From: Alphaproteobacteria bacterium
GTDB lineage: Bacteria > Pseudomonadota > Alphaproteobacteria > RF32 > CAG-239
NCBI GenBank assembly: GCA_045577985.1
Contig: JAZNJJ010000003.1
Coordinates: 87,192 to 151,191, forward strand
Length of the DNA: 64,000 nt
Reading direction: 5' to 3'
Shown: positions 18,251 through 27,880 of the stretch, piece by piece
How the letters are laid out: every line of letters begins with the position of its first letter
How positions within the stretch are numbered: the stretch's first letter is position 1
Notes under the pieces: generated by a model
Databases searched by the model: none
Seen by the model: only the letters and a program-made list of their open reading frames with translations
What the model was told of the DNA's origin: nothing
Made by a program: the position numbers and the translations under genes

Positions 18251-19255
18251 ATGATTATAGACATAAGAAAAATATTGTTCTTGGCTGTTGCAAGCCTAAT
18301 GATAACAACTCTTCCAATAAAGGAATGTGCATCATTTCCTCTGCCATCCGCGGATATAAAAAGAATGGTGGAAAATGCTAAAAAAACGTATAATCAGATA
18401 CTTGAGATTAAACAAGAAGTAGAAAGTAATATGCGTATCGTCCAAGAAATTCAAAATGGAGGATATGCAGCAGCAGCTGGTGATTTATTTGCAAAAATTC
18501 AAAATGGAGACTATGACCGATTCGGAGCTAACGTAAAGGGGGCTGTTCAAGGATTAAAACAAGGTGCAAAAGATGCTCAATATGCCGCAGCAGACAAAGA
18601 AAAAAGAGAAAAAATGGCTCAAGAAGAGGCTAATAAACTAGCACAGAAAAAGAAAGCTGAAGACCAAAAAGCTGAAGGCGAAGGTAAAGAGAAAACCGAA
18701 GAAAATATCGAAAAAGAGAAAGAGAATAAATTCAAAAAAGCTTATACTTGGTTAAAAGAGAGCAAGCTAGGTAAAGGTACAAAGTCTACATATAATTTCA
18801 TTAAAAATAATAGAACGCTGACATCTAGTGGATTGGCCGCTATAGAAGATGCACAGGAAGGAAACTGGGGAGATGCCGTGCTTAGAGCAGGGTATGGTGC
18901 AAGTAATATATATGGCATGGATGAAAATACTAGCGATTGGATTAGTAGTATTTCAACGATTGGTGGAACAGGTTATAATATAGGAACAAGTGGGGGGGAC
19001 GCACTTGATATGCTGAATGATGCCGTGAATAATAGTGCATTATGGGATAGTGCAGGATTCGTTAACGACGAATATTATGATTTTAGAGTAGAACAAGAAG
19101 AACAAGAAAAATTTGATGCTTGGCAAGAAGAACAACGTAAAAAACAAGCGGAAGAGTTTAATAAATGGAGTGAAGAACAAAAAAACAATACTCCAAGTTT
19201 TGGGGATGCACCATCCACTGACGATCTTACAGACAGTATGACATTTGATTTCTAA
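18251..19255 (+). CDS. Secreted coiled-coil protein (possible VirB5/TrbJ-like), triple G-[DN]-[YW] motif
   Basis: The ATG at 18251 follows AGGGAGG. It has a signal peptide, an N-terminal Q/N/E-rich helix (ADIKRMVENAKKTYNQILEIKQEVESN), and a K/E coiled coil. Motifs NGGYAAAAGDLFA, NGDYDRFGANVKGA and EGNWGDAVLRAGYGA are present. There is no internal TM. Confidence 0.4.
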   Translation: MIIDIRKILFLAVASLMITTLPIKECASFPLPSADIKRMVENAKKTYNQILEIKQEVESNMRIVQEIQNGGYAAAAGDLFAKIQNGDYDRFGANVKGAVQGLKQGAKDAQYAAADKEKREKMAQEEANKLAQKKKAEDQKAEGEGKEKTEENIEKEKENKFKKAYTWLKESKLGKGTKSTYNFIKNNRTLTSSGLAAIEDAQEGNWGDAVLRAGYGASNIYGMDENTSDWISSISTIGGTGYNIGTSGGDALDMLNDAVNNSALWDSAGFVNDEYYDFRVEQEEQEKFDAWQEEQRKKQAEEFNKWSEEQKNNTPSFGDAPSTDDLTDSMTFDF

Positions 19256-19279
19256 AGATAATAACCAAGGAGTAATAAT

Positions 19280-24607: not shown

Positions 24608-27600
24608 ATGATAAGAGATAATATTAAAATATTTACTTTAATCGCGGTTGTTCTTTGCTATTTTGGTGTTTTAAGCCAAAAATCAATGGCAATAGCTGCT
24701 AATTGTTTATCAAATATATCTCAAGATATTGGCAAATTTTCTAGTCTCTTTGAAAAGCCTGAAGGAGCCGGTATCGAAAGTCCTCTCGTAGGGAAAGAAG
24801 ATGATTATGCCAGTTTAGAAAAAATTACGGAAGTTCAGAAGTTTTTGGACGAAGCAAAAAAAGCTCACAATTTAAAACAAAGTCTTCCTAATTATAAAAA
24901 ATCATTTATCTCCTATAATGAAATGGTTGCTTATAGGGATAAAACAATAGAACATCTGAAAATTTCAGAAAAATGCATACAAAATTATATTGGAGGATAT
25001 TTTGATAGTGCGGCAAGTTCTTGGATGGGATCATCTTGCGGTTATAAAAATGATAAAATGTATTGTCATTATTCTCCGGAAAAAAATGCTTCTGATGCCA
25101 CGGAAAGTATAGGATCATATGATATATTATGTCCGGATAATGCATCATACAAATGTTATGTACCAATTACAAATAATTTTAAGGATCGTTCAGGTATTTC
25201 CGGATATTTATTGGCTTTATATAATCAAGCTAAGATTGATAGTACTCAGAATGATGACGAGAATAATGATTTATACATATCATCTTTAGACAATGAAGAT
25301 ACTAAAACTTTATCAAAATCAGAGTTAGATAAAAAGGGAAAAGAAGGTCAGAATGAAGATGCAATGTCTAATTTAAAGAAGCCATCAATGGAAGATGATA
25401 TGAAAGCGGAGGCTCGAGTTAATGAATTATTGAATTGGACAATTGGAGCTGAGGTATCTAAAGAATTATCAAATGATTTACGAAGTGGAACATCCAAATT
25501 TGGAGGAGGTAGTAAAAGATTTCCATTATGGAACGATCAAATTAATTTCTATGATCAATACGTTGATGGTAAATATAATAATATAAAAGATTATATCCAA
25601 AATGAGCCTTTACTCAATTTACTATTGGATACATCAGATTCTGTAAATAATGTCTTTCCTTATCAAGATGTTGTAAATGAAGAAGGTATTGTTACATTAT
25701 CGGCTACTCAACAACGTATATCTGCTGCTACCTCAATAGGTACACTGCGCTCAGCAGCTGCCGATGGAAAAAATACTTCAGATGAAATAGAACAAATGTT
25801 AGAAGATGAAAGATTAAAATTATCTGCTTTAACATTAAAATATAAGAAAGATTTGGAAAATTTGAATAATAAAAAAGCCTTATTATATTCTTCGCTAGAT
25901 AAAAATAGTACAAAGCTGAGCGATTTGCGAGATGAATACAATAATAATTTATCTATAATAAAAAATGCCGATAGTAATACTTTAAGATCAAATGATGCTT
26001 TAAATAAAAACAAGAAATTCTCAAGAAATGGTTTAGTATCTCCTTTTGAAAATAAACTTGCAGAAGATAATTCTGAAAATGCAAAAAACAGAGCTAATGC
26101 CTTATTAGAAAAAGATAGATTAAAAATCCAGATAGCTTCTTTAGAAAAAAAAGTAAAAGACCAACAAAAAGAATTAGAGGATATTAAGCAAAATATAGAA
26201 GACGTTCGAATTAAATATGTAAAAAATTACAGTGATTTGGAAAAAGAATATAAAATAAAAGTAGATACAACTATTGCAAATAGAAATAATACTGATTTAG
26301 CAAAAAAGATTGCAAAAGCAACAATAACCGTTTCTCCGTTAGCACAAGCTTCAAAAATTCTCCAATGTGTACGAGATTATGCATCTAAGCAAGTAGATGA
26401 TGCAATCAAGGAAATTGAAGTATTGAAGCAAGATAAAAGTATTTATTATCCAGAGAATGTATCAAAATTACATGAAATTCATAAGAACATGATAGATAAG
26501 ATAACTCACATAGGTTTAGAAGATTTATCATCTTGCAGCCTATTAATGGAGTTAAGTCAAAAGGTTATACCTAGTGTTCCTGAGGATCAACAAAATGAAC
26601 CCCGAGAGATTGGTGCAGGTGAACAAAATATAATGGATATTCTTTCGATATTTGCCAATATATGTACAGATGGAATATGTGAAACGCCTGATACAGAGTA
26701 TTTCGTAGGTATCGTTGGTAAACCAAGAGATTTTATGGCGCCAATGTCTCCTGTTGATTTTGCATCAGCACCTTTAAGAGAAATATTCCATTTTGATATT
26801 ACCGATTATAATAGTGTTGTAAAATACTATTCAAATAAAGATAAAATACATGATAATAAAAACGTAACCATAATAGGTGAAAGTTTTACTGAATTAGATA
26901 TTCCAGAAATATGGAAATATATTCTTAAGCATAGAGCATACGTTGAAAAAGATATAGACTATGCAGATTTTCTAAATAAAGGATCTCCAAAAAATAATTT
27001 AGTTCGTTCTGGTATATATCCATGCCAATCAAACGGTAATACTGTTGATAGGGGGGCATTGTCATATACAATAAATGATACACCAGATAAAGAAAGCTAC
27101 GGAACTTTAGCAAAGTGCAATGATGTAGATGTAAAAGCAAAAGGTGGTCGTATAGGTATATATGATAAGGAGGCAAGAGCTCAAACATCTGCGGGTGGAG
27201 ATCTTCAATTAAGCGGGGACGTATCAAAGAGTAGTGAATTAGGAACTCTACTTGATTATGTCGATGGAAAATTAACATTTAGACAAGAACTGCAAAGTGC
27301 TTTAGATTATATTAATAAAACAGAAGAGGTCGAAGGTAATTACAAATATTATGCATTTAATAGATATTTCCTCGATAGAAACCAATTTGGAGACTATTTA
27401 AATCAGTTTGAATTAGAGCAAATAGCTGAAGAAGCTATATTAAATATGGAACCTCAAATAGAAGAAGTTAGAAAAAGTCTAAATGAAATATTTGAAGTTT
27501 TTGGCGCGGAATTAAGTGCTGATTTTGACTTAACTAAAATTGATGATTATAATTTAGCTGTAAAATACCTTGAAGATTATAAAGAGAAAAATCTTCAAGA

Positions 27601-27880
27601 GGCAAAAAATAGAATAGATTTGATAGCTGTAACAACAGATAATTTAATAAATAAAAAATCTAAATTAAGTCATCAAGTTAAATTATTTGAAAAAGATTCG
27701 GATGAAGCTGTTTTCTTAAATGGAGATGATGATTTAGACGAGCTGGAAGAGAAAATAAAAACAAGTAATGCTGATGCAGCAATCACAAATGAATATCAGG
27801 AAGCTGGCTCAGAAGAATTTGCTAAAAAACTTGAAGAACTCAAAGCTCCATATTGTGCAGCATATCCTATAAATAATTAA
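24608..27880 (+). CDS. Large (1090 aa) secreted coiled-coil protein, unknown family
   Basis: RBS GGGAG, an N-terminal signal or anchor only, and several hundred residues of K/E/N/L-rich coiled coil (e.g. KDRLKIQIASLEKKVKDQQKELEDIKQNIEDV). Cys pairs are scattered through it. There is no polytopic region. Confidence 0.55.
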   Translation: MIRDNIKIFTLIAVVLCYFGVLSQKSMAIAANCLSNISQDIGKFSSLFEKPEGAGIESPLVGKEDDYASLEKITEVQKFLDEAKKAHNLKQSLPNYKKSFISYNEMVAYRDKTIEHLKISEKCIQNYIGGYFDSAASSWMGSSCGYKNDKMYCHYSPEKNASDATESIGSYDILCPDNASYKCYVPITNNFKDRSGISGYLLALYNQAKIDSTQNDDENNDLYISSLDNEDTKTLSKSELDKKGKEGQNEDAMSNLKKPSMEDDMKAEARVNELLNWTIGAEVSKELSNDLRSGTSKFGGGSKRFPLWNDQINFYDQYVDGKYNNIKDYIQNEPLLNLLLDTSDSVNNVFPYQDVVNEEGIVTLSATQQRISAATSIGTLRSAAADGKNTSDEIEQMLEDERLKLSALTLKYKKDLENLNNKKALLYSSLDKNSTKLSDLRDEYNNNLSIIKNADSNTLRSNDALNKNKKFSRNGLVSPFENKLAEDNSENAKNRANALLEKDRLKIQIASLEKKVKDQQKELEDIKQNIEDVRIKYVKNYSDLEKEYKIKVDTTIANRNNTDLAKKIAKATITVSPLAQASKILQCVRDYASKQVDDAIKEIEVLKQDKSIYYPENVSKLHEIHKNMIDKITHIGLEDLSSCSLLMELSQKVIPSVPEDQQNEPREIGAGEQNIMDILSIFANICTDGICETPDTEYFVGIVGKPRDFMAPMSPVDFASAPLREIFHFDITDYNSVVKYYSNKDKIHDNKNVTIIGESFTELDIPEIWKYILKHRAYVEKDIDYADFLNKGSPKNNLVRSGIYPCQSNGNTVDRGALSYTINDTPDKESYGTLAKCNDVDVKAKGGRIGIYDKEARAQTSAGGDLQLSGDVSKSSELGTLLDYVDGKLTFRQELQSALDYINKTEEVEGNYKYYAFNRYFLDRNQFGDYLNQFELEQIAEEAILNMEPQIEEVRKSLNEIFEVFGAELSADFDLTKIDDYNLAVKYLEDYKEKNLQEAKNRIDLIAVTTDNLINKKSKLSHQVKLFEKDSDEAVFLNGDDDLDELEEKIKTSNADAAITNEYQEAGSEEFAKKLEELKAPYCAAYPINN

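Follow-up and report, generated by a model that had tools for sequence, protein, structure and literature searches.

Sec-exported orphan proteins in the virB4–virB8 slot of a P-type type IV secretion operon from gut Alphaproteobacteria

A cassette of exported proteins in the VirB5/VirB6 position

Among described type IV secretion systems (T4SSs), the Trw system of Bartonella is a VirD4-less adhesion T4SS in which trwL (virB2) and trwJ-I-H (virB5–7) are amplified and variant pilus components mediate adhesion to the target, while in the rvh system of Rickettsiales the RvhB6 proteins are both polytopic and paralogous. In the structure of the R388 T4SS, VirB6 and VirB5 reportedly make up the central stalk, with VirB6 regarded as the platform of pilus growth. 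Here we describe a chromosomal P-type (VirB/Trb-like) T4SS operon from an uncultured Alphaproteobacteria bacterium (GenBank assembly GCA_045577985.1, contig JAZNJJ010000003.1, positions 87,192 to 151,191; this stretch of 64,000 nucleotides (nt) is called the window, and its numbering is used throughout) in which six open reading frames (ORFs), here named A to F, fill the slot between virB4 and the first virB8. This cassette consists of protein families without described relatives, inside a T4SS of an already known kind.

The operon shares with Bartonella Trw the presence of several virB2 genes (four here), extra genes in the VirB5–VirB7 slot and the fast divergence of putative surface components, and no coupling protein was found in the window or the next 10 kb. 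It differs in that the slot holds four unrelated families rather than tandem virB5/6/7 paralogues and no copy of VirB6, and a role in adhesion would be assigned here by analogy. With rvh it has in common several large genes after virB3–virB4, duplicated T4SS genes (virB8 and virB2) and scattered T4SS genes, but the six proteins of the window have neither a transmembrane (TM) segment beyond the signal peptide nor detectable paralogy. A search of the literature on this system found nothing relevant.

The six ORFs, the genes that limit their slot and the two genes that follow are:

15746-18175, + strand: virB4 (Pfam CagE_TrbE_VirB), upstream limit of the slot
18251-19255, + strand: A, 334 amino acids (aa), K/E-rich helical and Sec-exported, corresponding to the N-terminal half of the ancestral A-B gene
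19280-20959, + strand: B, 559 aa, exported, with 16 Cys
20997-22310, + strand: C, 437 aa, exported, helical
22312-23526, + strand: D, 404 aa, exported, helical
23539-24585, + strand: E, 348 aa, exported, corresponding to the N-terminal part of the ancestral E-F gene (~1400 aa)
24608-27880, + strand: F, 1090 aa, exported, corresponding to the C-terminal part of the same E-F gene
27896-28651, + strand: virB8 paralogue a (Pfam VirB8), downstream limit of the slot, upstream of virB7
28797-28985, + strand: virB7-like gene for a small lipoprotein, with an LSAC lipobox and a GIGxxxNxLKxSPCACxQ motif
28999-29739, + strand: virB8 paralogue b, the positional virB8 (Pfam VirB8, 74.5 bits)

Intergenic gaps among A–F measure 1–37 nt, the virB4 stop lies 75 nt from the start of A, and a GGAG-type Shine-Dalgarno site is found 5–10 nt 5′ of each ORF; a TTG at 18179, upstream of A, is not the start codon used in relatives. 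The block is not enriched in promoter- or terminator-like sites, and the gaps between the six genes contain none. The exact 404-aa D product is on record in the protein collection; an exact look-up of the window's D protein (P0053) returned no record.

Topology was assessed by Kyte-Doolittle hydropathy (19-residue scan, cut-off 1.2) together with signal-peptide anatomy. The signal peptides of A–F have n-h-c anatomy and AXA-like ends (CAS, SEA, SKA, SHA, AHA and SMA). Past the first 50 residues, no hydrophobic segment reaching 1.2 was found in any of the six (the top value outside the N-termini was 1.12, in F), and the same scan recovered four TM segments in a positive control, the VirB6-position protein of a Paracaedimonas plasmid. 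Members of the VirB6/TrbL family (PF04610) have at least five TM helices and match the family model; none of the six does either, and Pfam and NCBIfam scans returned no match at E≤1 for the VirB6/TrbL model and no known family. Cysteine content varies widely (A 1, B 16, C 7, D 0, E 7, F 14).

Searches for other T4SS components were also negative. The periplasmic Tra proteins of F-type systems (TraN, TraH, TraU, TraW, TraF and TrbC) had no Pfam or NCBIfam match among the six, and CagL, CagI, CagM and Cag3 matched neither in profile searches of the PDB (with the A, C, D and E-F families) nor in Foldseek searches with models of E and F. The PDB profile searches with alignments of A, C, D and E-F returned coiled-coil noise only (SMC, tropomyosin, ApoA-I, designed bundles and a weak IpaD match), and profile searches of a collection of 5.8 billion proteins with E-F and D found only members of the same clade, without Pfam domains.

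An earlier note on this DNA, made from the letters alone, had reported six ORFs of 334, 559, 437, 404, 348 and 1090 aa between virB4 and the first virB8, in the VirB5/VirB6 position, each with a good ribosome-binding site and a signal peptide; all of this holds, with every ORF on the + strand. It had also held that no further hydrophobic segment exists, which the hydropathy scan bears out, that none of the six is the polytopic VirB6/TrbL protein, which agrees with the lack of TM segments and of a Pfam match, and that the six might lie outside described families, as the family scans and PDB profile searches, with no accepted match, also indicate.

Families, gene splits and divergence of the cassette

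A scan with VirB4, restricted to one genome per species, found 255 relatives, from which 80 loci (L001–L080) were kept. These belong to metagenome-assembled genomes of uncultured Alphaproteobacteria from the gut of human, ruminant, horse, rabbit and chicken, including ‘Candidatus Scatocola’. Among them, the cassette between virB4 and virB8 is syntenic in 54 complete relatives. Identity to the proteins of the window is 76–91% for VirB4 and 53–84% for VirB3, as against ~25–50% for the six slot proteins, and in the half of the loci that is more distant tblastn no longer detects A, B and C. In pairs of genomes with 97% identical VirB4, the slot proteins are just 50–56% identical. Ratios of non-synonymous to synonymous substitution rates (dN/dS) in close pairs, by the Nei-Gojobori method, are ~0.1–0.2 for the slot genes versus ~0.005–0.02 for virB4. 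On these estimates the cassette is under purifying selection, which argues, together with the synteny and the recurrence of the exact F sequence in separate assemblies, that the slot ORFs are real genes, yet its non-synonymous divergence is more than ten times that of the motor. In close pairs, dS of the slot genes also exceeds that of virB4, and the cassette may be swapped by recombination.

The ORFs between virB4 and virB8 were listed in all loci and grouped into families by position-aware jackhmmer searches, which replaced a single-linkage BLAST clustering that had merged all slot proteins through fusions and low complexity. A four-gene layout recurs: [A-B] of 440–810 aa, C of ~220–300 aa, D of ~400–490 aa and [E-F] of 1250–1650 aa. 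As judged from these alignments, the six ORFs of the window represent four ancestral genes, [A-B], C, D and [E-F], of which the first and the last are split here. In the window and its near relatives A and B are separate ORFs; A aligns to the N-terminus of the fused A-B proteins and residues 30–190 of B to their C-terminus. E and F, separate in the window, are fused in most loci, with E aligning to residues 1–300 of the fused protein and F from its own residue 32–47 on, so that the signal peptide of F is extra and newly acquired. A second, independent set of lineages with split E-F (L060–63, L071–72 and L075–76) again gives the F half its own signal peptide. In two separate lineages, then, the downstream half of a split has a signal peptide of its own, and evidently both halves of a split gene must be exported. 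The exact F sequence of the window is recorded in several independent assemblies, and the split is therefore not an assembly error.

Comparison of the six with one another by BLASTP and phmmer, all against all, gave nothing below E=0.01 (best E=0.018). Paralogy of A with D, D with E and C with E, raised by hhalign probabilities of 92%, was rejected: the A–D and D–E alignments consist mostly of signal peptide, 92% scores that did not include it were not reproducible, and profiles trimmed of signal peptides gave less than 30% probability for every pair of families. As no pair survives trimming, we reject paralogy among the six. Three suggestions of the earlier note are not supported: the ‘expanded family’ finds no paralogy by BLAST, phmmer or profile–profile comparison of mature regions; the ‘six components’ reduce to four ancestral genes, two of them split here; and the analogy with the virB6 array of Rickettsiales finds neither TM segments nor paralogues, the closest plasmid-borne VirB4 proteins, in collections without Rickettsiales chromosomes, belonging to alphaproteobacterial plasmid T4SSs and not to rvh.

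A lies first after virB4 in all related loci and bears a signal peptide, the position and export route of VirB5. Past the cleavage site, the family shows F/W/I-P-(T/L/S)-x-D, a helix of ~30 residues and a conserved Gly, and plasmid VirB5s show a matching start pattern, ‘GIPVIDPTAIARI...’ (IPVIDP...). When a hidden Markov model (HMM) of the A N-terminus was run against 3405 ORFs of ≥80 aa (the window and every fetched locus), it found only proteins of slot position 0 and, at rank 74 with E=2.4e-4, the post-VirB4 protein of an Erythrobacter aureus plasmid, with no false positive ranked above it. That Erythrobacter protein passes the gathering score of PF07996 (VirB5), with 30.3 bits versus 24.7. 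PF07996 itself matched no protein of the window and is absent from the 25 most-matched families of A- and D-family members, the A-family PDB profile search returned no VirB5 structure, and a word-indexed search with the A N-terminal profile found only three fragments from the clade.

N-terminal matches to DUF4141, below threshold, occur in 7/43 members of the A family (best 3.8e-5). In the member examined in detail, L051, DUF4141 scores 22.8 bits against a gathering score of 30, and the A protein of the window has no DUF4141 match. In Bacteroides conjugative transposons a DUF4141 protein is listed beside traJ, in a tra cluster that also holds traG (PMC10434189). The A family thus resembles the Bacteroidetes proteins in these N-terminal matches and in its equivalent position near a VirB4-family gene; the T4SS types are otherwise distinct.

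Compared with VirB5/TrbJ/TraC (PF07996, a minor pilus protein of the stalk tip), A is likewise encoded after virB4 and Sec-exported, and it likewise has the hydrophobic-P-x-x-D pattern, a long helix and a turn containing G. It differs in being longer (334 aa, or 500–800 aa when fused with B) and a K/E-rich coiled coil, in the extra C-terminal domain of the fused A-B protein and in having no member at the Pfam threshold. On this evidence A is best read as a very divergent VirB5-position protein, below the family's curated threshold. The earlier suggestion of a TrbJ/VirB5-like N-terminus in several of the six therefore stands for A (through the Erythrobacter VirB5 match at E=2.4e-4 and DUF4141), whereas for C, D and E it is weakly supported or inconclusive. 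B is conserved over residues 30–190, beyond which lie a lineage-specific region with 16 Cys and an S/N/T-rich tail.

C has a conserved core of ~220–260 aa followed by a variable tail with G/A/Y and Cys. D ends in a conserved motif, ...KDxTxFNLDDY. An exhaustive profile search of 1.84 billion representatives with D gave 297 matches at E≤1e-3 and 149 at E≤1e-10 (counted as 50%-identity representatives), most of the 297 being full-length (380–480 aa); the 64 distant members that were scanned matched no known family. Likeness of D to VirB5 is weak (hmmsearch E=3e-4 among nine sequences and 0.13 among 3405 ORFs; hhalign 28%). In two proteins, P0140 (525 aa) and P0198 (302 aa), a D domain and a linker are fused to a VirB2 pilin core close to that of the window's VirB2a (phmmer E=4e-22 and 2e-20). 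On its contig, P0140 is flanked by C-like and E-like genes and therefore occupies the place of D in the slot. In such a fusion D would face the periplasm or the cell exterior, on that side of the pilin hairpin, which is Rosetta-stone evidence that D works with VirB2.

Pilin-core fusions (L055, L061, P0140, P0198 and L084) are a recurring theme in the clade. Proteins of 1013 and 479 aa (L055 6477-9518 and L061 8173-9612), encoded just upstream of virB3/virB4, carry a VirB2 pilin core inside coiled-coil, G/A-rich or Cys-rich extensions.

The E part of the giant E-F protein has conserved cysteines at positions 39, 42, 184, 191, 201 and 221, and Foldseek found no meaningful PDB neighbour for its model. 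A weak match (E=0.002) links the E profile to an Erythrobacter protein encoded before VirB7, at its N-terminus, where a Pro/Cys-rich stretch and a helix follow the signal peptide. F yields a confident AlphaFold (AF2) model, with a predicted local distance difference test score (pLDDT) of 81.5 and a predicted template modelling score (pTM) of 0.73. The model has a 66-residue helix, a small Cys-containing beta domain (~144–185), several helices, an antiparallel hairpin of helices of 82 and 79 residues (390–557), an alpha/beta region (~670–920) and four C-terminal helices, with a conserved PYCA motif at the end; F is accordingly modelled as an elongated coiled-coil protein with globular parts. 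Foldseek searches of the PDB and BFVD with the F model gave generic long-helix matches only (best E=0.04 and 0.009), and no VirB5 structure was among the matches of E or F. Solved VirB5 proteins (TraC of pKM101, TrwJ) fold as a three-helix bundle that bears a globular appendage. A relationship of F to the alpha-pore-forming toxins AhlB/SmhB or to PrgA was not accepted, the Foldseek matches being generic. Members of the E-F and D families turned up in no context other than this T4SS.

No VirB6-like ORF occurs in the window, where the polytopic proteins are a T2SS-F protein, YidC and Bax1-I only, and no VirB6-like polytopic protein lies in the 10 kb past its end. Within 10 kb either side of virB4 in the 80 loci, every protein near the operon with at least four TM segments is a VirB2-core fusion. 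VirD4 is likewise absent from the window and the next 10 kb. The apparent lack of an operon-encoded VirB6 is unusual.

By VirB4, the closest plasmid-borne systems are those of Microvirga pMVF16-3 (38%) and of an Erythrobacter aureus plasmid (33%), among collections that did not include Rickettsiales chromosomes. Their slot encodes a VirB5-like protein, a soluble helical protein of 428–493 aa and a VirB7 lipoprotein of 58–68 aa with SPCAC; that of Microvirga also has a 228-aa three-TM protein (L081 19216-19902). The soluble helical proteins (Microvirga L081 19932-21218 and Erythrobacter L082 19255-20736) have a Pro/Cys-rich N-terminus. Neither plasmid has a classical VirB6 in the virB4–virB8 slot. 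The plasmid of Paracaedimonas, more distant (29% by VirB4), encodes a canonical VirB5 and the polytopic VirB6-position protein used as a control above.

The virB7 gene of the window (...SPCACMQ...), not in the list of the earlier note, lies between its two virB8 genes, and the lipoproteins of 58 and 68 aa encoded before virB8 by the plasmids of Microvirga and Erythrobacter have the same motif. The shared SPCAC VirB7 confirms common descent with these plasmid systems; since virB8a lies upstream of virB7, virB8a is by position the extra copy. The gut clade and these plasmids share the order virB2-B3-B4, VirB5-like protein, soluble helical Pro/Cys-rich protein, VirB7 and virB8-B11. The conjugative plasmids, however, encode a relaxase and VirD4 and have only two or three slot genes of 230–490 aa, whereas the gut clade has four to six slot genes totalling ~3200 aa, an extra VirB8 and giant beta-flower proteins in the VirB10 region, with no VirD4 or relaxase nearby.

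Other genes of the operon and its surroundings

The remaining genes of the operon, and those reaching past the window on the side of the third virB8, are:

starts at 13012, 13832, 14230 and 14638: four virB2 genes, upstream of virB4
15022-15462, + strand: gene, after the last virB2 and before virB3, for an exported K/E-rich protein of 146 aa
start at 15459: virB3-like gene, upstream of virB4
29757-31376, + strand: virB9 (VirB9/CagX family), with a C-terminal SPOR domain
31383-35813, + strand: giant beta-flower-repeat protein 1, 1476 aa
35819-39991, + strand: giant beta-flower-repeat protein 2, 1390 aa, ending in a TrbI/VirB10 domain
start at 40001: virB11, downstream of the slot
L085 10779-11531 and 14798-15529: lipoprotein and ankyrin-repeat entries

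The virB2 genes at 13012-13410 and 13832-14236 (+ strand) are near-identical and differ mainly in their C-terminal tails. A small upstream ORF is duplicated with them (12876-12971 and 13693-13791), which indicates that ~820 bp were recently duplicated in tandem. The two paralogues further on, at 14230 and 14638, are more divergent. The 146-aa protein matches no Pfam family, is 25–40% identical in near relatives and undetectable in distant ones, and may be a seventh fast-evolving accessory protein.

Both giants (1476 and 1390 aa) contain beta-flower/DUF3659/RHS-like repeats (Pfam Bflower_2, E=3e-77 and 1e-51), and the hugely extended VirB10 region that results is reminiscent of CagY. The SPOR domain on VirB9 is of a kind that binds peptidoglycan; among the genes of the operon, a VirB1-like transglycosylase was not seen.

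A divergent cluster resembling type IVb and R64 thin pili adjoins the T4SS (1468-12687, mostly on the - strand) and encodes a secretin, a TcpQ-domain protein, PAP_PilO, two T2SSE ATPases, a T2SSF protein and, at 5957-7561 and 11197-12687, two unassigned exported proteins. At the other end of the window, a third virB8 paralogue (63022-63798, + strand) lies 23 kb from the operon and is followed by a gene for a 250-aa lipoprotein; it is divergently preceded by a gene for a 648-aa lipoprotein of no known family (61015-62961, - strand). An ankyrin-repeat protein, with a eukaryote-like domain frequent in T4SS effectors, is encoded ~4 kb past the window end.

Readings of the cassette and their consequences

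The reading that we favour, and hold to be somewhat probable, is that the products of the cassette are components of pilus, stalk or adhesin, specific to the lineage, in a Trw-like T4SS of uncultured gut and rumen Alphaproteobacteria. The six proteins would be co-transcribed with virB2–virB11 and exported by Sec, several of them probably being stabilised by disulfides, and would assemble on the periplasmic or extracellular side as a stalk, pilus or tip module. Here A(-B) would be the divergent equivalent of VirB5, D would associate with (dock on) the VirB2 pilin and E-F would form a giant elongated coiled coil, the positional counterpart of the soluble pre-VirB7 protein (~430–490 aa) of the plasmids. 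Their fast divergence against a near-frozen VirB4 suggests that the cassette is an exposed surface in contact with a target, and the system would therefore be a Trw-like apparatus of adhesion or contact. In favour of this reading are the operon structure, the signal peptides without further TM segments, the synteny in 54 complete relatives, the gene splits with a signal peptide on each downstream half, the purifying but fast evolution, the VirB5 match of A, the D–VirB2 fusions, the four virB2 genes with no VirD4 in the window or the next 10 kb, the F model and the slot content of the closest plasmids. Placement in the pilus or stalk, a part in adhesion or contact, and functional replacement of an operon-encoded VirB6 are inferred.

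Several points tell against this reading. The six are placed in the machine from sequence and predicted models, and none has a Pfam, NCBIfam or PDB relationship at a curated threshold. The likeness of A to VirB5 covers ~75 N-terminal residues, partly signal peptide, and hhalign on mature sequences gives P=0.011 for A and VirB5; the likenesses of D to VirB5 and of E to the pre-VirB7 protein are weak. The D–VirB2 fusions are known from two short metagenomic contigs, where an assembly error or a frameshift could have produced them. The AlphaFold model of E is of low confidence (pLDDT 55.7), with a helical-hairpin core at 70–82. VirB6 and VirD4 could lie elsewhere in the genome, where T4SS genes are scattered, as the third virB8 (63022-63798) shows.

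The same proteins might instead be Sec-dependent substrates: Sec would take them to the periplasm and the T4SS would then secrete them, as the VirD4-less Ptl system does with pertussis toxin, and outside the cell they would act as toxins, pore formers or free adhesins. Sec signal peptides on all six, the absence of VirD4 from the window and the 10 kb beyond, and fast evolution, which is common in effectors, would all fit, as would a weak helical-bundle likeness of B to XaxB (NCBIfam E=0.065) and of F to AhlB/SmhB (Foldseek probability 0.8–0.96, but E 0.07–0.5 and TM-score ~0.35). These toxin-like matches are, however, below significance and of a kind usual for any long helical hairpin. The genes, moreover, sit inside the structural block from virB4 to virB7/virB8 and keep that place across deep divergence, whereas the pertussis toxin genes are located upstream of ptl; A resembles VirB5, a structural protein, and D is fused to pilin in some relatives. 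We regard secreted substrates as unlikely. That the cassette is unrelated cargo, such as genes for general envelope or surface proteins with no tie to the T4SS operon around them, seems very improbable: B, C and F have no detectable homology to any T4SS component, as cargo would, but synteny between virB4 and virB8 is strict in every complete related locus, the genes are spaced at short translational-coupling distances, the E-F and D families have been found in this context only and A has a VirB5-like N-terminus.

Another reading is a purely periplasmic scaffold, not exposed at the surface, that takes the place of the VirB6/VirB5 stalk between VirB3/VirB4/VirB8 and the outer core of VirB7/9/10. 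It would account for the lack of a VirB6-like polytopic ORF in the window, in the next 10 kb and within 10 kb in the 80 loci, for the closest plasmid systems, which lack a classical VirB6 and keep a soluble helical protein before VirB7, and for the co-occurrence of the cassette with an extra VirB8 copy. Such a scaffold should, however, co-evolve slowly with VirB4, VirB8 and VirB9, and the cassette is 25–50% identical where VirB4 is 76–91%; the D–pilin fusions point outward, to the pilus, and a VirB6 might be encoded outside the loci that the searches covered. We consider this arrangement doubtful. A bolder proposal, also one that we would hold with little confidence, is that the clade, and perhaps its plasmid relatives too, builds a working P-type T4SS without any VirB6. 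Soluble helical proteins exported by Sec would then form the central stalk and the platform of pilus nucleation, namely an A-B derived from VirB5, a D that docks on pilin and the 1400-aa E-F, of unseen fold. If true, this would amount to a new architecture for the T4SS core, joined to a hypervariable surface of contact with the host or with neighbouring gut cells.

The operon is conserved in hundreds of species-level genomes from gut and rumen. With its slot filled by four orphan exported proteins and no VirB6 nearby, the locus offers a natural test of whether VirB6 is indispensable. It also supplies candidates for modules of pilus tip or adhesin, one of which has a confident model without a specific structural neighbour, and a hypervariable cassette in a frozen machine suggests target-specific recognition. 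Humans and livestock widely harbour the Alphaproteobacteria that carry it, in which the locus points to a contact-dependent system so far unexplored.

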